Shown one piece after another: positions 9,969 to 34,360 of a stretch of DNA of 64,000 nucleotides. This DNA is from an uncultured Alphaproteobacteria bacterium (GTDB taxonomy: Bacteria > Pseudomonadota > Alphaproteobacteria > SP197): NCBI GenBank assembly GCA_958295695.1, contig OY282363.1, positions 1,113,156 to 1,177,155 on the forward strand. The letters run 5' to 3'. A program made the translations under genes and the position numbers. The notes under the pieces were generated by a model, which did not search any database, was not told where the DNA came from, and saw only the letters and a program-made list of their open reading frames with translations. How positions within the stretch are numbered: the stretch's first letter is position 1; each line of letters starts with the position of its first letter.

Positions 9969-10262
9969 CGCGGTCTCGCTCGACGCCGCGTCATCATGGC
10001 CCGGCCGCGCCGGGCGTGTGAAGAGGCTTGTTCGACCGTGAAGCGCGGGACGAACCGCGCCGGCGCCGGTCTCGTCCGCGTCGCGGCGTTCCACGAGCCC
10101 GATGGCGGGACCCGCGCGCGTGAACTCGAGCGAGCCTTCGGCGGCCGCCCAGGGCGAGGGGATTTCGGGGCGGGTGTCGGGAGAACGCTCTTCCCCCCAT
10201 CCCGAACAGGCGCGCGGCGCCGTATCGAGGGAGCGCCCTCCTTCGCCCCGCCGCGAAGTTCC

Positions 10263-10291
10263 GGGGGGTTGACGGGGGGGTAGGGGTAGGA
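10263..10291 (+). other. G-quadruplex-forming motif (G6-N5-G7-N2-G4-N2-G2)
   Basis: ggggggttgacgggggggtaggggtagg, in the intergenic region between the 2OG oxygenase gene and the low-GC island. Confidence 0.3.
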
Positions 10292-10384
10292 GACTGCCGA
10301 AGTCCGGTTGGAAGGATCGCGGAAGCATGACGAGGTTGTTTCCCCGCAACGCCCCCCGCGCGTCGGGCTCGGCGGCCCATGGGC

Positions 10385-18363: not shown

Positions 18364-19503
18364 ATGGCGCATACGTTCGAGCGGGTTCCCCTGATGGCGC
18401 CCGGCCCCGGAACCGAGCGGTTCCTCGCGGCGCACCGCTTCGGAACGCCGGGCGCGCGGCCCAAGCTCTACTTCCACGCCGCGCTCCACGCCGACGAGCT
18501 GCCGGGCGCGCTGGTCCTCAACCGGATGCTGGGCTGGCTGAAGGAGGCCGACGCCGAAGGCGGTCTCTCCGGCGAGGTCGTCGTCGCGCCCTGCGCCAAC
18601 CCGGTCGGACTTTCCAACCGCGTCATGGGCTACCATCTCGGACGCTACGACCTGGACGGCGACGGCAACTTCAACCGCTGGTATCCGGACCTGGGCCGGA
18701 CGGTGGGCGACAGGGTCGGCGACCGGCTGGGCGACGACGAGGCGGAGAACGGCCGCCTGATCCGGGAGGCCTACCGGGAGGCCATCGAGGCGTGGGAGGC
18801 CCACGGCGAGGCCGACACCCTGCGCAAGACGCTGATGGCGCTGTCGGCCGATTGCGACTTCGTGTTCGACCTGCACTGCCACGGCGAGGCGGTCCAGTAC
18901 ATCTACATGCCGGAGAACCACTGGGAGCGCTACGGCGATCTGGCCGCCGAGCTCGGCTGCCGGACGGCGCTGCTGTTTCCGACCGACGCCGGGACCACCT
19001 TCGACACCGCGCCGACGGTCGTCTGGCATCGGCTGCGCGAATGCTTCCCCGACCGGCCGATCGCGGAGCCGCCGTTCACGACCACCCTGGAGCTGCGCGG
19101 CCAGAACGACGTGGGCGACGACATCGCGCTGCGCGACGCGCGCGGCCTGTGGCGCTTCCTGCAGCGCCACGGGATCGTCGCGGGCGATCCCGGCGACCCG
19201 CCGGAGCTGTTGTGCGAGCCGACGCCGGTCTCGGGTTCCGACAATCTCGTGGCGACCCGCGCCGGCGTCCTGTCCTACCGCGTCGATGTGGGCGGCCGGG
19301 TCGAGGCCGGCGACGTGGTGGCCGACATCGTCGATCCGGCGGAGGCGGACTTCGACGCGGCGCGCACGCCGGTGAGGAGCCGGGCGACGGGCGTTCTCTA
19401 CGGCCGGTCGATGAGCCGTCTGGTGCGGCCGGGCCAGTCGTTCGCCGTGGTGTCCGGGCGCGAGGCGCTTCCGGCCGGCGACCCGCCCGCGATCGACTAC
19501 TGA
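18364..19503 (+). CDS. succinylglutamate desuccinylase/aspartoacylase (AstE/AspA) family deacylase, paralog 1
   Basis: 379 aa with the AstE_AspA N-terminal Zn-site pattern FHAALHADELPG and DLHCHGEA. This is the family that contains DoeB (N-acetyl-diaminobutyrate deacetylase). Confidence 0.75.
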   Translation: MAHTFERVPLMAPGPGTERFLAAHRFGTPGARPKLYFHAALHADELPGALVLNRMLGWLKEADAEGGLSGEVVVAPCANPVGLSNRVMGYHLGRYDLDGDGNFNRWYPDLGRTVGDRVGDRLGDDEAENGRLIREAYREAIEAWEAHGEADTLRKTLMALSADCDFVFDLHCHGEAVQYIYMPENHWERYGDLAAELGCRTALLFPTDAGTTFDTAPTVVWHRLRECFPDRPIAEPPFTTTLELRGQNDVGDDIALRDARGLWRFLQRHGIVAGDPGDPPELLCEPTPVSGSDNLVATRAGVLSYRVDVGGRVEAGDVVADIVDPAEADFDAARTPVRSRATGVLYGRSMSRLVRPGQSFAVVSGREALPAGDPPAIDY

Positions 19504-19510
19504 GGCCGCC

Positions 19511-20614
19511 GTGACGCACCGCAAGGAGCATATCGACCTGCCCGTGGCCAGCCTCGGCACCCGGCGCCGCCTCGTCGTGCACCGCTTCGGGACGCCGGGC
19601 GCGCGGCCCAAGGCCTACCTCCACGCCGCGCTGCACGCCCAGGAGCTTCCCGGCGTCGTGGTCCTGGACCGCCTCGTCGCGCGCCTCCGGGAGGCCGACG
19701 CGGCCGGATCGGTCGCGGGCGAGGTCGTGGTCGTCCCCTTCGCCAACCCGATCGGGCTGTCCCAGCAGATCATGATGGAGGCCCAGGGCCGCCACGACCT
19801 CGATACGGGCCGCAACTACAACCGCGGGTTCCCGGATCTTATCGACGAGGTCGCCGACGCGGTCGACGGCCGCCTCGCCGGCGACGGCGCCCGCAACGTC
19901 GCGTTGATCCGCGAGGCCATGGCGTCGGCGCTCGCCGCCCGCCGCGACGCGCGCGAGGCGGACGTCCTGAAGCTCACGCTCCTGCGCCTGTCCTGCGACG
20001 CGGACCTCGTCCTCGACCTCCATTCGGCCTGGGAGGCGCTGCTCCACCTCTTCGTCACCGACCTCAACTGGCCCGGGGCGTCCGACCTCGCTCGCCAGAT
20101 GGGCGCCGAGGCGGTGCTGGTCGACCGCGGCAACCGTATGATGACGTTCAAGTCGGCCCATGCGCTCCTGTGGAAAGAGCTCGCGGCGCGCTTCCCCGAC
20201 CGTCCGGTCCCGCCGGGCAGCCTCGCCGCCGTGGTCGAGCTACGCGGACAGCGCGACGTCGACGACCGCTTCACCAAGCCGGACGCGGACAACCTGTTCC
20301 GCTGGCTGCAACGCCGCGGCGCGGTCGCCGGCGACCCCGGACCCCTGCCGCCGCCAGCGTGCGAGCCGCGCTCGGCGGACGGGCTGCGCCGCCTCTTCGC
20401 GGCGGAAGGCGGCATCGTCATCTACCGCGGCGCGCTCGGCGACCGCGTCCGGGAAGGCCGGGCCTTCGCCCACATCCTCGATCCCGACACGGGCCGCCGC
20501 ACCGCCGTCTCCGCGCCCGCCGACGGCCTGCTCTACGCCCGCCGTAGCCACCGGTTCGCCCGGAAGGGCCAGTATTTCGCCGCCATCGCGGGCGACACGT
20601 TCGTCGAGGATTAG
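19511..20614 (+). CDS. succinylglutamate desuccinylase/aspartoacylase (AstE/AspA) family deacylase, paralog 2
   Basis: 367 aa, colinear with paralog 1 (LHAALHAQELPG, DLHSAWEA). Starts 8 bp after paralog 1, so a tandem pair. Confidence 0.75.
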   Translation: MTHRKEHIDLPVASLGTRRRLVVHRFGTPGARPKAYLHAALHAQELPGVVVLDRLVARLREADAAGSVAGEVVVVPFANPIGLSQQIMMEAQGRHDLDTGRNYNRGFPDLIDEVADAVDGRLAGDGARNVALIREAMASALAARRDAREADVLKLTLLRLSCDADLVLDLHSAWEALLHLFVTDLNWPGASDLARQMGAEAVLVDRGNRMMTFKSAHALLWKELAARFPDRPVPPGSLAAVVELRGQRDVDDRFTKPDADNLFRWLQRRGAVAGDPGPLPPPACEPRSADGLRRLFAAEGGIVIYRGALGDRVREGRAFAHILDPDTGRRTAVSAPADGLLYARRSHRFARKGQYFAAIAGDTFVED

Positions 20615-20746
20615 GACGGCGGCGAGGGAACCGTCCGCGGCCCGCCGGCATCGCCGATGGGGCCGCCCGGACGACTCCGATCCGGCTCTTCCCTTTCAGT
20701 TATCCGGTTTCTCTCTTTCAGTTATACGATCTCGTCCTTTCAATGA

Positions 20747-28260: not shown

Positions 28261-29022
28261 TCAGGCCGTCAGGCCGCCGTCGACATTGACGGTCTGGCCC
28301 GTGATGTAGTCGGCGCCCGCCGACAGGAACAGGATGGCCTCGCCGTAGTCGGCCGGCGTGCCGATGCGGCCCAGCGGGACGACGCCCGGCGCGTCCCTTT
28401 CCATGCCCGGGAAACGGCACATCCAGGCCGACTCGACGATGCCGGGCGCGATGGCGTTGACCCGCGTCCGGGGCGCGAGCGCCCGCGCCCATTCCTTGGT
28501 CAGGTTCACGAGGCCGGCTTTCGCCGCGCAGTAGACCGAGCTCGATCCGCCCCCGCCGTGGGCCGAGATCGAGGCCGTGTTGACGATCGCGCCGCCCGAG
28601 TCCCGCAACGCCCCGGCCGCCGCCTTGGTGCAACGGTACGGGCCGATCAGGTTGACGTTGAGCAGCAGGTTCCAGAACGCCTCGTCCTGGCGGTCGAAGT
28701 CGTCGGGCGGGATGGGCCGCCGCGTGCCGGGCGTGCCGGCGTTGTTGACGAGGTAGTCGAGGCCGCCGAGGTCGGCGATGGCCCGCGCCACCATGCGCGG
28801 GCAGTCCTCCGCGTCGCCGACATCGCCGGGCGCGGCGACGACACGATGGCCCGAGACGCCGAACTCCTCGACGACGGCGTCCAGGGTCCCGGACCCCGGC
28901 AGGTCGTTGACCGCCACGCTCGCGCCGCAACGCAGATAGGCCTTGACGGCGCCCAAGCCGATGCCCGAGGCGCCGCCCGTGACCAGCGCCCGCTTACCCT
29001 CGAGGTCGTAGGTCGCCAGCAT
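28261..29022 (-). CDS. SDR-family oxidoreductase
   Basis: 253 aa with TGGASGIG and a YxxxK-type catalytic dyad (SVYCAAK), classical SDR. Confidence 0.85.
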   Translation of the reverse strand: MLATYDLEGKRALVTGGASGIGLGAVKAYLRCGASVAVNDLPGSGTLDAVVEEFGVSGHRVVAAPGDVGDAEDCPRMVARAIADLGGLDYLVNNAGTPGTRRPIPPDDFDRQDEAFWNLLLNVNLIGPYRCTKAAAGALRDSGGAIVNTASISAHGGGGSSSVYCAAKAGLVNLTKEWARALAPRTRVNAIAPGIVESAWMCRFPGMERDAPGVVPLGRIGTPADYGEAILFLSAGADYITGQTVNVDGGLTA

Positions 29023-29130
29023 CGCCGTCTCCCGCCGGTTGTTGATCGCGTCATAGCGCCTCGCCGGCGCGCCGGGAAGCCGCCGTCGTCCGCCTGTCGC
29101 GCGTCCGTCGAGGACGGACCGGCTTCAGCG

Positions 29131-29230
29131 GGGAACTCTATCGAAAAGTCACATTGACACAACATCTTGTGTTCATTTTATCTCGTCACATCAACATGAT
29201 GTAGAAATGTGATCGTTGGATATAATCCCC
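29131..29230 (+). repeat. direct repeat DR1 (~100 bp, 38-bp perfect core) bounding a ~3-kb inserted segment; contains a TTGACA box and palindromes
   Basis: tatcgaaaagtcacattgacacaacatcttgtgttcat is identical to 32179-32216. The next ~60 bp are about 80% identical. It carries TTGACA, ACACAAcatcTTGTGT and CATCAacaTGATG. Confidence 0.7.
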
Positions 29231-30090
29231 TATCAATTGCGGGCAAGTGGAACTTCCGGGATTGGAGCCTGGACTTTTCATTCTCGGCAAGCCTCGATGG
29301 GATCGAGATCGAGGCAGAGGCAGGACCGCTCGAGTTTGGGCTCAAGGTAACGGAGAATAATATTTCTGGCAATGTCTCTACAGGAAAGGATAGCCTGAGT
29401 GTTGAATACGGCGACGACGGGGAGGTTGACGTTGAGTTGGGTCTTGGACCCGAAACTGTTACAGCTAAAAGTGTATTTGGTGAAACTACCTATCAAGCGG
29501 AACTTGATTACGGTCTGGGTAGTGTCACCGTTTTTGACAGTCCAAAATCCGATGACGGTCAGGAGTCGCCGGGAAGTGAGGTTGGCGACGACCGGTCGGG
29601 TGATCCGAAAGGCGATCCCGACGCGGGCGCGGACCATCCGGGCGGTCTGGCGGCGGACGACACGGACCTCGAGGCGTTCGCGGCGCTGCACGACGGCAAC
29701 GACGACGGGGTGTTCGACGCGAGGGACGTGGACTGGTCGAAGGCCGGGGTGTGGCGCGACGCGGACGGCGAGGCGGACGCGGGCGAGTTCCACACGCTGT
29801 CGTCGCTGGGCATAACCTTGATCGGCCTCACGTCGGACGGGGTTGCGGAGGACGTGTCGGGCAACCGTATCGCGGGCCGTTCGAGCTACACGCTAAGCGA
29901 CGGGACGACGCGCGAGCTGGCGGGCGCGGCGGGCGTGGCGCTGCTGGGCGGCGCGGGCGCGTCGAACGTCGAGGCGGCCATCGGCGGCGGCGGCGGGGGC
30001 CTCGCGGGGTGTGGACGTTCCCGGCCGGCGGGGATAGGCTGGCGTTCATGGACGCCAATCTCGCTGGCTTCGTCGCTCTCGCGGCCCTGA
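29209..30090 (+). CDS. hypothetical acidic Asp/Gly-rich protein with an EF-hand-like Ca-binding loop; possibly a gene fragment
   Basis: The first ~350 bp have atypically low GC. Motif HDGNDDGVFDARDVDW resembles a DxNxDG calcium loop. The ORF starts inside DR1. No signal peptide is evident. Confidence 0.35.
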   Translation: MIVGYNPLSIAGKWNFRDWSLDFSFSASLDGIEIEAEAGPLEFGLKVTENNISGNVSTGKDSLSVEYGDDGEVDVELGLGPETVTAKSVFGETTYQAELDYGLGSVTVFDSPKSDDGQESPGSEVGDDRSGDPKGDPDAGADHPGGLAADDTDLEAFAALHDGNDDGVFDARDVDWSKAGVWRDADGEADAGEFHTLSSLGITLIGLTSDGVAEDVSGNRIAGRSSYTLSDGTTRELAGAAGVALLGGAGASNVEAAIGGGGGGLAGCGRSRPAGIGWRSWTPISLASSLSRP

Positions 30091-30359
30091 TCCTCGGCCT
30101 GTTCGCCTGGCTGCGCCAGGACATCCGCGCCTTGCGCGGCGAGATGCACGGGCTGCGCGATGAGGTGAACGGCCGGATCGACGCCTTGCGCGACGAGATG
30201 AGCGGCCGGATCGACGCCTTGCGCGACGGGATGGGGGAGTTACGCGAACGGGTGGCGCGCATCGAGGGTCTTCTGGAGGCTGTGTTCATGCGCCGCGACC
30301 TGACGCCCCTGCCCGATCCCCCGGCCCCCGAGCCTCCGGGCAAGTCCGAAGCCGCCTGA
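30048..30359 (+). CDS. small membrane-anchored coiled-coil protein with internal tandem repeat
   Basis: 103 aa with an N-terminal TM (LAGFVALAALILGLFAWL) and a repeated RDEVNGRIDALRDEMSGRIDALRDGM segment; the 33-nt DNA unit is duplicated. Confidence 0.35.
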   Translation: MDANLAGFVALAALILGLFAWLRQDIRALRGEMHGLRDEVNGRIDALRDEMSGRIDALRDGMGELRERVARIEGLLEAVFMRRDLTPLPDPPAPEPPGKSEAA

Positions 30360-30630
30360 AGCCCTCGACGGCCTTGGCGGACCGGATCGTGCCGCGGGAT
30401 CGGTTCACGGTGGCGCGCCGGGTGGAGACCCCGGCGTTCGCCGACGGCGGACGCTGGCGACTGGCGGACTTCGTTATCGGCACGTCTTCGGCGGACACGC
30501 TGGCGTCGGGCGCGGACGTGAAGATCGCGGCCCGACAAGAGCATTGAACGCCTCCATCGCCGCCGGTAGCTTCTCGCGCGATGGGGCGACGACCGTGAGG
30601 ATCTGGATGCCGGGACGTGCGCCAGCCTTT

Positions 30631-32028
30631 ATGAAACCCCGTAACCGTCTCGCCAGCGGCATCGCTCTGCTGGCGCTGGCGCTCGCCGCGTCCCCGTCCG
30701 GGGCGGCCGGTTGCGACGATTGGAACATGATGGCTTTCTTCGCGGAGGCCACGGCGGACGAGGTGCGCGGTTGCTTGGCGGGAGGGAGCGATCCCATGGC
30801 GCACGACGATAAAGGTTGGACGCCGCTCCACAAGGCGGCCGTGCTGTCGAGCGATCCGGCCACGGTTGCCGTGCTGCTGGAAGGAGGGGCAGACCCGAAT
30901 GCGCGAGGCGACAGAGATGCGAGACCGCTTCACGTCGCCGTCCGGTACTCGGCCGATCCCGCCACGATCGCCGCGCTGCTGGGGGCGGGGGCCGATCCGA
31001 ACGCGCGAACCTCGGACCAGAGCGTGACGCCGCTTCACGTCGCTGCTCAGATATCGGCCGATCCCGCCACGATCGCCGCGCTGCTGGAGGCGGGGGCCGA
31101 TCCGAACGCGCGAACCTCGGATCAAGGCGCGACGCCGCTTCATCTCGCGGCGGAGCACTCCGACGACACTGCTGTTTTCGTCGCGCTTCTGGGGGCGGGG
31201 GCCGACCCGAATGCGCGAGCCGACGGAGATGTAGCACCACTTCATCTCGCCGCCCATCACTCGAACAATCCGGCGATGGTTACCGCGCTGTTGAGAAGCG
31301 GCGCCGATCCGAACGCGCGCGCCCGCAGGGATACGACGCCGCTTCACTTCGCCGTGCGGTACTCGGACAATCCCGCCGTGGTCGTCGCGCTTCTGGGGGC
31401 GGGGGCCGATTCGAACGCGTGGGCCGACGGAGGTGTGACGCCGCTTCACCTTGCCGCCCAGTACTCGGCCGATCCCGCCGTGGTCGTCGCGCTGCTGGAG
31501 GCGGGGGCCGATCCGAACGCGCGAGGCGACGGAGGCGTGACGCCGCTTCACCTTGCCGCCCAGCACTCGGACGATCCCACCGTGGTCGTCGCGCTGCTGG
31601 AGGCGGGGGCCGATCCGAACGCGCGAGGCGACGGAGGCGTGACGCCGCTTCACCTTGCCGCCCAGCATTCGAACGGTCCGGCGAAGCTCGTTGTCCTGCT
31701 GAGGGCGGGAGCCGATCCGAACGCTCGGATGTCGGATGAAGGCGCGATGCCGCTTCATCTCGCGGCGCAGTACTCCGACAATCCCGCCATTCTGATTGCG
31801 CTGCTGGAATCGGGAGCCGATCCGAATGCACAGGCGGGTGACAACGGTATCACGCCTCTCATGGTAGCCGCCCGGTTTGCAAGCGACCCCATGGTCCTGA
31901 CGACTTTGCTGGATGTCGGCGCGGACACAGACGTTCGGATCGCCGGAGGCTTGAGCGTTTGCGATCTGTTGGAGCGCAACCCGGCCTTGGAGGTGGCGAA
32001 TGCCGACGGGCGCCTCGGCTGCCGATGA
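30631..32028 (+). CDS. ankyrin-repeat protein (about 12 ANK repeats) with N-terminal signal peptide
   Basis: MKPRNRLASGIALLALALAASPSGAAGC is followed by repeated TPLH(L/V)AA..S.DPA.V.ALL.AGADPNAR units of 33 aa, equivalent to a 99-bp DNA periodicity. Confidence 0.8.
   Translation: MKPRNRLASGIALLALALAASPSGAAGCDDWNMMAFFAEATADEVRGCLAGGSDPMAHDDKGWTPLHKAAVLSSDPATVAVLLEGGADPNARGDRDARPLHVAVRYSADPATIAALLGAGADPNARTSDQSVTPLHVAAQISADPATIAALLEAGADPNARTSDQGATPLHLAAEHSDDTAVFVALLGAGADPNARADGDVAPLHLAAHHSNNPAMVTALLRSGADPNARARRDTTPLHFAVRYSDNPAVVVALLGAGADSNAWADGGVTPLHLAAQYSADPAVVVALLEAGADPNARGDGGVTPLHLAAQHSDDPTVVVALLEAGADPNARGDGGVTPLHLAAQHSNGPAKLVVLLRAGADPNARMSDEGAMPLHLAAQYSDNPAILIALLESGADPNAQAGDNGITPLMVAARFASDPMVLTTLLDVGADTDVRIAGGLSVCDLLERNPALEVANADGRLGCR
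30870..31780 (+). repeat. 99-bp tandem DNA repeats encoding the ankyrin units
   Basis: Units recur with high nucleotide identity, e.g. gccgatccgaacgcgcgaggcgacggaggcgtgacgccgcttcaccttgccgcccagcactcg. Confidence 0.7.
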
Positions 32029-32170
32029 CACGCTGGACAACGATTGTTGGGGTCCGAGTATGCGATCGCGGTCCATCGGACAGGCGGAGGGCGCGCCGTC
32101 GAGTAGTTGGATAAAGACGATCCCGCCACCTCAAGGTACAGCATCGGAGTGGTATGGAAGTCTATCGATA

Positions 32171-32270
32171 GGGAATTTTATCGAAAAGTCACATTGACAC
32201 AACATCTTGTGTTCATCTTGCCTCGTTACATCAATATGATGTGCAAATGTGGCCATTGGATAGAATCGCC
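32171..32270 (+). repeat. direct repeat DR2 (partner of DR1), located in the convergent intergenic region after the ankyrin gene
   Basis: Same core as DR1, offset 3040 bp. It includes a vestigial 5' ORF start (MWPLDRIALQ versus MIVGYNPLSI in DR1). Confidence 0.7.
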
Positions 32271-32272
32271 CT

Positions 32273-34360
32273 TCAACGGCCCTCCGCCCGCCAGGCCGCG
32301 GCGAGGCCGCCGACGAACAAGAGCAGCGCGAGCCAGGGCGGCAGCAGCGCGAGCGTGTCGATTCCCCGCACGAGATAGCGGCCGTGGTCGACGACGCCGA
32401 TCCAGCCGTTCCCGCTGAGGTCGCGGCCGGGCGAGACCCGGCGCACCGTCGGCAGGGGATCGTGGGCGAGCCAGAAGAGGCCGCCGCCGCTCTCGGAGAC
32501 GATCGGCCGCAAGGCCTCGGCGGTCGCCCGGGGATCGCGCCATTCCGGCGGATTGAGCGCGCCCACGCCGACGACGGCCTCGAGCTCGCCGTCGGCGATG
32601 CGGTGGAGGCCGGCCTCGCTCACGGGCGCCTCGGCGGTCGCGCGGCCGGGCAGGCCCGGCTCCAGCAGGACGGTTTCGACGACGCCCGACGGCCGCGCGA
32701 CCGAGACCTCGAAGCCGCGGTCCTCCATGGACTGGCGCACGATCGTGAGCCGGTCGCCGACCGCGACGGCCGACAGCGCGTTCTCCTCGAGGTCGGGCTC
32801 CTTCATGAGCCAGTGGGCCAGCCGGCGCAGGAGCTCCTGGCTCGGTCCTCCGCCCCCGTAGCCGCGCGACCAGAGCCAGAGATGGTCCGACAGGAGCTCG
32901 GCCACGCGGCCCTCGCCCACGCGCTGGACGACGAGGAGCGGACGCTCCTCGGCGCCGTTGAGCAGGACGTCGCCCGTTCCGGCCTCGACGCCGACCAGGC
33001 GGAACCACGGCCCCCAGGGCGGAATCTCGTTGCGGACGCCGGCGAGGTCGGCGGTGATCGGATGGCGCAGGCCCGCGTCCGTCGGGACGACCCGATAGCC
33101 CTGCTCGACGATCTCCCCGGTCGGCAAGGCGGGCATCAGATCGCCCAGCACCGTGGTGTGAAGGCCGAGCTGGGTCGCGAAATCCGGACCCGCCGAGACC
33201 ATCATCGCGCCGCCCTCGAGGACATAGCGCGCGATGTTGTGGAGATAGAGCTCGGGGATCACGCCGCGCTTGCGGTAGCGGTCGAAAACGATGAGGTCGA
33301 AATCCTCGAGCTTGACCTCGAACAATTCGCGCACCGGGAACGAGATCAGAGAGAGCTCCCGGATCGGCGTGCCGTCCTGCTTCTCGGGCGGGCGCAGGAT
33401 CGTGAAGTGGATCAGCTCGACCGAGGGGTCGGCCTTGAGCGTGTTGCGCCAGACCCGTTCGCCGGTGTGGACCTCGCCCGAGATCAGCAGGACCTTGAGG
33501 TTCTCGCGAACGCCGTTGATCGCCAGGACGGCCTCGTTGTTGACCGCGGTGAGCTCGCCCTCGCGCGGCTCGACCTCCAGCCGCACCACCGACGGGCCGG
33601 CGCGGTCCGGCAGGAAACGCATCTCGTAGCGTTCGCCGACGGGAACGCTCCGTGCGATGGGTTCGCCGCCGGGCGGCGTCAGGGTCACGGGCGCGACACC
33701 GCCGCCGGCCGCGCTGTCGTGGACGCGGAAGACCAGGGTCACGGGCTTGTCGACGATGCCGTAGCGGGGCGCCTCGATCAGTTCCAGGCGGCGGTCGGCC
33801 TCGTGGCGGGCGCCGGTCAGCAGAACGTGCACGGGCGCGTCGATCCCGAGGGCCTCGACGGATTCGGGCGCGTCGTGCACGGCGCCGTCGGTCACCATGA
33901 CGATGCCGGAGACCGCATTGCGCGGAACGTCGGCCAGCGCCCGTCGGATGGCGCCGAAGAGGTTGGTGCCCGAACCGGGGAGCGCCCTCTCTCCGGCGGC
34001 CCGCGCCGGGTCGATCTCGGCCACCCGCACCTCCAGATTGGCGAGCCGAGAGAACCGTTCGGCGAGCGCCTCGACCGCCGCGTCGGTCTGTTCCGGCCGG
34101 TTTCCCACGCTCTGGCTGGGCGACCGGTCGGCCAGGACCAGCGCCACGTCGGGCAGCGGCTCCCGGCGTTCCTCGACGACGGAGGGGTTGGCCAGCGCCA
34201 GGACCAGCGCCCCGAGCGTGAAGCAACGCCAGAAGGTTCCGGGCGCCCGGCGCAGGAAGCCGTAGCCGAGAAGAAGAAGAGCCGCGACCGCGAAGGCGAT
34301 GACGAGCCACGGCGGGAGCAGCGGATCGAGGACGAGGTCGGTGACGGCGCCCGCGTTCAT
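32273..34360 (-). CDS. large membrane-anchored protein of the moxR/DUF58 aerotolerance-like operon (N- and C-terminal TM, vWA-like central region)
   Basis: 695 aa. Its start overlaps the upstream gene stop (ATGA). Conserved position as the 4th gene of the moxR-DUF58-DUF4159-X cluster. Confidence 0.6.
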   Translation of the reverse strand: MNAGAVTDLVLDPLLPPWLVIAFAVAALLLLGYGFLRRAPGTFWRCFTLGALVLALANPSVVEERREPLPDVALVLADRSPSQSVGNRPEQTDAAVEALAERFSRLANLEVRVAEIDPARAAGERALPGSGTNLFGAIRRALADVPRNAVSGIVMVTDGAVHDAPESVEALGIDAPVHVLLTGARHEADRRLELIEAPRYGIVDKPVTLVFRVHDSAAGGGVAPVTLTPPGGEPIARSVPVGERYEMRFLPDRAGPSVVRLEVEPREGELTAVNNEAVLAINGVRENLKVLLISGEVHTGERVWRNTLKADPSVELIHFTILRPPEKQDGTPIRELSLISFPVRELFEVKLEDFDLIVFDRYRKRGVIPELYLHNIARYVLEGGAMMVSAGPDFATQLGLHTTVLGDLMPALPTGEIVEQGYRVVPTDAGLRHPITADLAGVRNEIPPWGPWFRLVGVEAGTGDVLLNGAEERPLLVVQRVGEGRVAELLSDHLWLWSRGYGGGGPSQELLRRLAHWLMKEPDLEENALSAVAVGDRLTIVRQSMEDRGFEVSVARPSGVVETVLLEPGLPGRATAEAPVSEAGLHRIADGELEAVVGVGALNPPEWRDPRATAEALRPIVSESGGGLFWLAHDPLPTVRRVSPGRDLSGNGWIGVVDHGRYLVRGIDTLALLPPWLALLLFVGGLAAAWRAEGR

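Follow-up and report, generated by a model that had tools for sequence, protein, structure and literature searches.

The window analyzed here is a stretch of 64,000 nucleotides (nt) of contig OY282363.1 from an uncultured alphaproteobacterium, with a mean GC content of 70.7% and the gene content of an ordinary core chromosome (MutS, malic enzyme, urease, cytochrome b, L25, PRPP synthetase, YchF and Lgt). Two 100-bp direct repeats (DRs) in this window, DR1 and DR2, enclose 3 kb carrying a 293-aa open reading frame (ORF1), a small gene for a transmembrane coiled-coil protein, a further short ORF and an ankyrin-repeat gene. The enclosed block lies between an SDR gene on the left and a convergent 695-aa gene of a MoxR/DUF58/BatA cluster on the right (Table 1). 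We examined the anatomy of the repeats, their flanks, the genes between them and the corresponding sites in a sister strain and in related organisms, and from these we discuss how the block entered the chromosome.

A repeat search of the window recovered DR1 and DR2 as a two-copy direct-repeat family (106 nt at 85% identity), and the unit ends listed in Table 1 were fixed independently, to the exact nucleotide, by a terminal inverted-repeat consensus. Over these 100 bp the copies are 86% identical, differing at 14 of 100 positions, 11 of which are transitions. Their longest perfect run is a 38-bp core with the dyad ATTGACAC-AACATCTT-GTGTTCAT; a 37-nt core sequence occurs exactly twice in the window and in none of 100 window shuffles. 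The two direct repeats with a perfect 38-bp core reported in the initial annotation were therefore confirmed, and the TTGACA box (29155–29160 in DR1) and the two palindromes that it named (ACACAA-CATC-TTGTGT and ACATCA-AYA-TGATGT) can be read directly in the units. A possible −10 element, TTTTAT, follows in DR1 at 29177–29182. DR1 contains the annotated GTG start of ORF1 (29209), whose first codons, MIVGYNP, come from the repeat, and DR2 ends 2 bp short of the stop codon (32273–32275) of the 695-aa gene. What the same annotation took for a vestigial ORF start in DR2 belongs to the repeat unit and is its 3′ arm; a third copy, found in a sister strain, reads MVIEYNPY* in the same frame.

Several properties of the unit are those of bacterial MITEs (transposable elements of the miniature inverted-repeat type). 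It is small and AT-rich (34–40% GC across copies, in a 71% GC genome), and it encodes no transposase, its reading frames spanning 8–15 codons only. The unit profile matches its own reverse complement (E = 3e-6), and a 25-nt terminal consensus (GGG.A.T.TATC.AA....CACATT) marks each end of the three copies; elsewhere in the 362 kb covered, comprising the window and related loci, it has no match. The terminal inverted-repeat arms match at about 70% of positions. DR1 and DR2 are predicted to fold into long hairpins (−30 and −31 kcal/mol, z = −3.3), and 93.5% of the hairpin pair cells are kept across paralogues, compared to 31–47% in slid controls. On this anatomy, we regard DR1 and DR2 with moderate confidence as copies of a lineage-specific, non-coding, AT-rich 100-bp element built like a bacterial MITE.

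The third copy was found in a sister strain represented by the metagenomic contig loci L001 and L041, which carries the same DR1 and DR2 and is 99.3–99.8% identical to the window in the flanks. It lies inverted at L041 269–368, 9.6 kb from the DR pair, and has three mismatches to the 38-bp core versus 15–17 in the 62 positions outside it. On both sides it is flanked by TTTTCAAT (null probability about 0.008–0.017), and the homologous site of the window has a single TTTCAAT, so that a filled site in L041 can be compared to an empty one in the window, as expected of a MITE. The segment L041 245–1665 is entirely absent from the window, which has 130 bp of unrelated sequence in its place. Adjoining the third copy is a strain-variable gene for a 412-aa AAA_14/DUF4143 ATPase, assigned to the PADLOC candidate defense family PDC-S01 (E = 8.5e-170). 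Next to this site, just past an AstE/AspA-type gene, tandem repeats of ~22 bp with an iteron-like look (CTTTCAGTTATCCGGTTTCTCT-like) occupy about 20690–20735 of the window (about 195–255 of L041), numbering two in the window but three in the sister strain.

The 8-mers that flank the DR pair, all identical in the sister strain, follow the order CTTCAGCG-DR1-TATCAATT and TATCGATA-DR2-CTTCAACG. The outer pair (A) matches at seven of eight positions and the inner pair (B) at six of eight, compared to two to four for all cross pairs (joint null, 2.25e-5). The two flanks of DR1 match at three of eight positions, as do those of DR2, and neither repeat carries its own duplication. Target duplications of the kind left by MITEs were thus seen both as the TTTTCAAT pair of the third copy and in the outer and inner pairing around the DRs. 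The left outer flank keeps CGC TGA on the other strand, as in the relative L053; the corresponding sequence in L055 is CGC TAG. Both units lie on the + strand in the layout A-unit-B...B-unit-A, the order expected of a cointegrate or translocatable unit, and such a layout with direct units is the mark that a circular DNA leaves on fusing into the chromosome by way of the element.

By sequence comparison, the DR-bounded interval is a lineage-specific insertion. In L055–L057 (78% identity in the 695-aa protein), the 695-aa gene is followed co-directionally by M17 peptidase, SDR and FAA hydrolase genes with gaps of 55 and 23 bp, and in L053 and L054 (80%) by a 77-aa SDR remnant and the FAA hydrolase gene. 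The C-terminus of the 695-aa protein is identical in L053 and reads ...WRSEGR* in L055. Homology between the window and L053–L057 stops at the conserved stop codon, and none of these five loci contains ankyrin, coiled-coil or SPM genes or the unit. A remnant of the M17 peptidase gene was sought between the SDR gene and DR1 of the window and none was found. In L053 (12247–12480), the shrinkage of SDR to 77 aa and the loss of the M17 peptidase gene indicate that the interval downstream of the 695-aa gene is prone to rearrangement in several lineages.

The initial annotation had proposed an inserted 3-kb segment and suggested comparing related strains. Insertion is borne out by the relatives, which have neither the repeats nor the island; a discrete 3-kb cassette is not, because the same DR1 and DR2 have about 10 kb between them in the sister strain. 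There, four ankyrin genes (384, 547, 378 and 473 aa) are interleaved with about seven coiled-coil genes (85–114 aa), compared to the single ankyrin gene of the window. Identity between the window and L041 is 99.3% and 99.8% on the two sides of a breakpoint that falls within the coiled-coil repeats, which identifies the cargo as a tandem array whose length was changed by unequal recombination. The same annotation had also offered a local duplication as the reading to adopt if the core occurred only here and relatives had the three genes without repeats. Neither was observed, as the sister strain has a third core copy and the relatives lack both genes and repeats.

The gene products are roughly as initially described, namely an acidic EF-hand-like protein, a coiled-coil membrane protein and a protein with about 12 ankyrin repeats. 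The drop in GC after DR1 is likewise real, at about 49% over 29100–29550 (~450 bp after DR1) versus about 71% for the window. ORF1 is a mosaic of unit codons, an orphan low-GC N-terminal part of 115 residues (to about 29550), an SPM-type Ca-binding-like domain common to RTX proteins, and a tail of array-repeat sequence. Its product is acidic, with DxDxDG-type loops. The only close homologue, P0001 (98%), carries a precomputed PF26745 'SPM' assignment, a family on which a literature search returned nothing. The distant relatives P0002 and P0003 share only the central segment and continue into HemolysinCabind (PF00353) repeats and a '...LDLAATNMEAAFGG...' segment, both of which survive in ORF1 as stubs. 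Without the PF00353 repeats of P0002 and P0003, ORF1 does not qualify as an RTX/SPM secreted protein, and it had no match in the local Pfam copy. Between window and sister strain, ORF1 shows five non-synonymous and three synonymous differences. As judged from its sequence, ORF1 is probably the remnant of a rearranged or truncated RTX-type gene.

The coiled-coil protein belongs to a family of >190 proteins, whose source-named members are mostly labeled 'MAG: Rhodospirillaceae bacterium'. Neither it nor ORF1 matched the defense and protein-naming libraries. An internal 33-bp repeat (11 residues, GRIDALRDEMx; 30154–30233 in the window) varies in number among paralogues and strains to give products of 85, 92, 103 and 114 aa, and the array-repeat sequence begins upstream of the gene, at about 29925. 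From these sequences, the coiled-coil repeat is evidently the substrate of array expansion and contraction. The ankyrin protein, whose length is counted from the start used by the gene caller in the sister strain, has an N-terminal hydrophobic leader ending in ...SGAAGC, signal-peptide-type by eye, and about 11–12 repeats of 34 aa; in the defense and naming libraries it matched generic ankyrin models only, below cut-off. GC content at third codon positions (GC3) is foreign in both the orphan N-terminus of ORF1 (0.48) and the ankyrin gene (0.76), compared to 0.92–0.94 in adjacent host genes.

Table 1 Features of the DR-bounded interval and its surroundings (window coordinates).
Feature	Position	Strand	Remarks
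Host SDR gene	28261–29022	−	left island boundary; in relatives, its orthologue comes after the M17 peptidase gene
Outer flank A, left, CTTCAGCG	29123–29130		resembles an ancestral Arg codon plus stop
DR1, 100-bp MITE-like palindromic unit with terminal inverted repeats	29131–29230	+	38% GC
38-bp core of DR1	29139–29176	+	perfect match to DR2 core
ORF1, 293 aa	29209–30090	+	first 7–8 codons from the unit
Inner flank B, first, TATCAATT	29231–29238		
Small transmembrane and coiled-coil gene, 103 aa	30048–30359	+	internal 33-bp repeat, variable number
Short ORF (...FADGGRWRLADFVIGTSSADTL...)	30374–30547	+	by eye resembles a linker/repeat fragment of an RTX-type protein
Ankyrin-repeat protein, 473 aa	30607–32028	+	GC3 0.76
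Inner flank B, second, TATCGATA	32163–32170		
DR2, second copy of the unit, oriented as DR1	32171–32270	+	40% GC
38-bp core of DR2	32179–32216	+	
Outer flank A, right, CTTCAACG	32271–32278		working stop and last Arg codon of the 695-aa gene
Host 695-aa gene, MoxR/DUF58/BatA cluster	32273–34360	−	right island boundary; C-terminus ...AAAWRAEGR*
Site of third copy and PDC-S01 gene in the sister strain (L041 245–1665)	20743–20872		window has a single TTTCAAT

Parts of the same module were also seen elsewhere. In L052 (ERZ19489113 contig s47.ptg000049l, 9672–13654), an RTX-repeat stub, a 92-aa coiled-coil gene (P0019) and a 416-aa ankyrin gene stand beside a phage-type integrase gene without the unit, indicating that the module also travels by other means; further on in this locus is a Prok-E2/JAB/ThiF/Multi_ubiq cluster with helix-turn-helix and M78 peptidase genes. 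In L042 (ERZ21830300, 3061–11904), from a related organism with 70% GC, ankyrin genes that share this leader and C-terminal tail are interspersed with SPM/HemolysinCabind fragments and adjoin a type I secretion pair (C39-peptidase ABC transporter and HlyD-type adaptor). This layout suggests, at the level of sequence, that the ankyrin family expanded inside an RTX locus. In L044–L051, a 114-aa coiled-coil member (P0022; gene 10001–10345) stands by itself in a peptide ABC transporter operon, with the substrate-binding and permease genes on its two sides, again without the unit and in an arrangement identical in 16 contigs from several samples. The coiled-coil gene can therefore occur without ankyrin partners.

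Taken together, the repeats, their flanks and the comparison with relatives make it fairly probable that the gene block entered this housekeeping region of the chromosome through the MITE-like element. In the proposed scheme, a circle with a single element copy between its target duplications B would have joined the chromosome at target A, which is the stop codon of the 695-aa gene, either at A itself or at a copy already resident in A. The joining could have come about by replicative, cointegrate-type transposition, with a transposase supplied in trans, or by a homologous crossover in the conserved 38-bp core. Either route would leave A-unit-B...cargo...B-unit-A with the units in direct orientation. 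Unequal recombination between the ~300-bp coiled-coil gene repeats would later have let the array grow or shrink, giving 3 kb in the window and 10 kb in the sister strain. DR1 now stands upstream of the array, supplying the annotated start of ORF1 and possibly a promoter, and DR2 follows immediately on the stop codon of the convergent host gene.

Several observations weigh against entry through a MITE-like element. The duplications are imperfect (7/8 and 6/8), and all four flanks share nnTCnnnn, so that a target preference could inflate the match. Conservation within the unit is asymmetric, with the 5′ inverted repeat and the adjacent 21 nt perfect between DR1 and DR2 and five changes in the 3′ inverted repeat; typical MITEs keep both inverted repeats best. 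At the third copy, the empty-site alignment is not fully clean (the flanks have diverged and about 20 bp differ), and this copy folds no better than shuffles (z = −0.26). The three copies known all lie within about 30 kb of one lineage, and neither the remainder of the window nor about 300 kb of related loci yielded another. Among 185,579 GTDB representative genomes, the 19-mer TGACACAACATCTTGTGTT gave 39 matches, none extending beyond 19–21 nt and all unrelated. Scans of JGI metagenomes and IMG/VR with patterns restricted to invariant unit positions returned no copy, and blastn of the unit and the low-GC stretch against plasmids and phages returned nothing. No transposase with matching termini was found in the window or in the related loci, and no mobility gene of any kind in the window or in loci bearing the unit; IS256- and IS1595-type genes in L044 are likewise without matching termini. 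The circular donor is hypothetical, since the cargo has no replication or transfer genes.

One alternative to this scheme is that MITE-like units landed independently beside an island that arrived otherwise, or moved the island as a composite transposon, with the flank pairing due in part to coincidence or target preference. All of the MITE-type evidence applies to this case, the nnTCnnnn shared by the four flanks hints at such a preference, and the occurrence of the RTX stub, coiled-coil and ankyrin module beside a phage-type integrase in L052 shows that the module can be moved by other means. Independent insertions should, however, each carry their own duplication, whereas the matches at DR1 and DR2 (3/8 each) fall below those of the outer (7/8) and inner (6/8) pairs, and composite transposition explains the outer pair but not the inner one. 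We therefore consider this alternative unlikely.

Site-specific recombination is also to be weighed, with an unlinked tyrosine or serine recombinase acting on the core dyad ATTGACAC-N8-GTGTTCAT to insert and excise circular modules at cassette- or att-type sites. In its favor is the perfect 38-bp stretch in copies that are otherwise 23% diverged (P about 6e-5 for that stretch and about 4e-3 for any such stretch); the core could be a crossover segment or could be under selection. The dyad symmetry with a 4–8-bp spacer, the direct units around variable cargo, and the third copy beside a strain-variable defense gene fit as well, and the A-B...B-A order would also be expected from unit-by-unit recombination. 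Yet no recombinase was found in the window or in the annotated loci L001 and L041, the PDC-S01 indel has a unit on one side only, canonical attC core sites are not kept (GTTRRRY is present in DR1 only), and terminal inverted repeats with 8-bp duplications point to transposition. This explanation is accordingly quite unlikely. Its more specific form, in which the unit is the dedicated recombination site of an uncharacterized integron-like gene-capture system without a linked integrase in uncultured Rhodospirillaceae, we hold to be improbable. If it were true, the ankyrin array here and the PDC-S01 defense gene elsewhere would be captured modules, and the ATTGACAC-N8-GTGTTCAT core would be selectively maintained.

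Established site-specific systems were considered and set aside. A reading of the repeats as att sites was discarded, as the window has no integrase, the copies are similar along all 100 bp, and every one of them forms an inverted repeat. An integrase-mediated island bounded by attL and attR does not fit a 64-kb window without integrase or tRNA genes, nor a third copy at another site; transposase genes are absent from the window as well. An integron attC or cassette array was rejected, as the window has no intI, with GTTRRRY confined to DR1 and no site between the array genes of L041.

That the units are promoter or operator copies bound by a transcription factor, or an AT-rich target for silencing, duplicated as regulation required, and are not mobile DNA would account for the TTGACA box, the two palindromes, three TCACAT motifs and a 5′ half better kept than the 3′ half. 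In DR1 alone, TCTTGC has become TTTTAT through three clustered transitions, at a suitable spacing from TTGACA. However, DR2 and the third copy face convergent genes at the 3′ end, with no gene left for them to drive, a consensus promoter scan was negative, and the −35 box is mutated to TTGGCA in the sister-strain DR1 and to TCGACA in the third copy. The inverted repeats, flank pairing and empty site would also be left unexplained, and we give this explanation a low probability. A promoter role for DR1 only (TTGACA-N16-TTTTAT, versus TCTTGC in DR2 and the third copy) is plausible from the sequence.

A small structured RNA, or a cis-acting hairpin that terminates or stabilizes the transcript of a gene running into the unit, is very improbable. 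The hairpin is stable in two copies (z = −3.3), several differences between copies would still allow G-U pairing on the + strand, C-G is replaced by U-A in one alternative stem of the third copy, and the reverse complement of DR2 and of the third copy directly follows a stop codon. Against this, covariation in the three unit paralogues was no better than in shuffles (316/500), and Rfam 15 covariance models gave no match for the window at the gathering threshold nor for 28950–32450 at E ≤ 1. The third copy folds no better than shuffles, no terminator-type U-tract follows the hairpin on the + strand, and a terminator scan was negative at the units. Least probable of all is a local segmental duplication that made DR1 from DR2 or the reverse during array amplification: the region is rich in tandem duplications and the right-hand flanks of DR1 and DR2 share TCAA (4/8), but the unit lies outside the array repeat, the 10 kb of L041 hold just the two copies at the boundaries, the third copy is 9.6 kb off in opposite orientation, and the flanks match at 2/8 and 4/8 on the same side versus 7/8 and 6/8 crosswise.

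Among described elements, the unit can be compared to MITEAba12 of Acinetobacter, a 113-bp MITE with inverted repeats, 8–9-bp duplications, an AT-rich target preference and outward promoters, which can supply the first four codons (MQQS) of a neighboring gene (PMC6382973). Both are AT-rich and non-coding, at ~100–113 bp, with terminal inverted repeats, 8–9-bp duplications, AT-rich or intergenic insertion, strain-variable presence, outward sigma70-like hexamers and donated first codons (MQQS there and MIVGYNP here). The unit differs in that no parental insertion sequence (IS) or transposase was found in the loci searched, three copies are known, no sequence similarity to any described element was seen, and conservation is concentrated in 38 bp over one inverted repeat and internal sequence instead of both inverted repeats. 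MITE pairs flank integrons and a 76-kb region in the manner of composite transposons (PMC6382973), with 439-bp MITEs flanking class 1 integrons and MITE-297 flanking the 76-kb region (reviewed in PMC6382973). As in those composites, two non-autonomous copies bracket unrelated cargo with an outer target duplication. Here, however, the inner flanks pair too, which points to fusion of a single-copy circle and not to a pre-formed composite, and the cargo is an ankyrin/coiled-coil array on a chromosome instead of resistance genes on a plasmid.

In cointegrates of the IS26/IS6 type, direct copies flank the incoming DNA, the outer flanks are the target duplication and the inner flanks derive from the donor circle. 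IS26 is 820 bp and encodes its own transposase, whereas an enzyme would have to act in trans on the 100-bp unit, for which homologous recombination between copies would serve equally well. ERIC, REP/BIME and Correia elements are imperfect palindromes in intergenic positions, often right after stop codons, with possible effects on transcripts, and they are present in tens to hundreds of copies per genome. The unit resembles them as an imperfect palindrome in the range of about 100–150 bp; it has no sequence relationship to them, and its copy number could be very low. Integron attC sites are likewise imperfect palindromes (57–141 bp) in direct orientation, with promoterless cargo and variable genes adjoining the site. 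For the unit there is no intI, R''/R' core sites are not conserved, the array genes are not separated by sites, and inverted-repeat ends with an 8-bp duplication are foreign to attC.

Host-associated bacteria have expanded families of ankyrin-repeat 'eukaryotic-like' proteins (PMC6372511), and the array shares with them multiple apparently exported paralogues, non-host codon usage and a variable genomic region (PMC6372511). An ankyrin gene paired tightly with a small transmembrane coiled-coil gene and RTX/SPM fragments was not found described in the literature searched. If entry through the MITE-like element is correct, the locus gives a sequence-level account of a block of ankyrin-repeat genes, usually discussed as host-interaction factors, entering and then diversifying in the core chromosome of an uncultured high-GC alphaproteobacterium. 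Entry by a tiny non-autonomous element would have left the readable A-unit-B...B-unit-A scar, and copy number would have changed fast thereafter, with one versus four ankyrin genes between strains whose flanks are 99% identical. The comparison also flags a previously undescribed MITE-like family with an unusually conserved 38-bp core and a strain-variable defense gene nearby. The mechanism is not unprecedented, and the locus is a new example of a known process instead of a new kind of system.

Elsewhere in the window, a 1.2-kb island of 42% GC in the 71% GC genome (10327–11232, AT-rich to about 11460) encodes an orphan protein of 301 aa that matched nothing in Pfam, NCBIfam or PADLOC. By eye its sequence looks like Sel1/TPR-type repeats, and downstream TATCGA motifs recall the terminus of the unit; the island probably represents one more acquired 'eukaryotic-like' gene. 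Two other direct repeats of two copies each (18423–18615 versus 19570–19762, 78% over 198 nt; 15988–16041 versus 16399–16452, 87% over 54 nt) lie in or near Rieske/AstE-type and ectoine-synthase-like genes, where ORF 15949–16908 has two Ectoine_synth/Cupin stretches. These repeats are possibly internal gene duplications.

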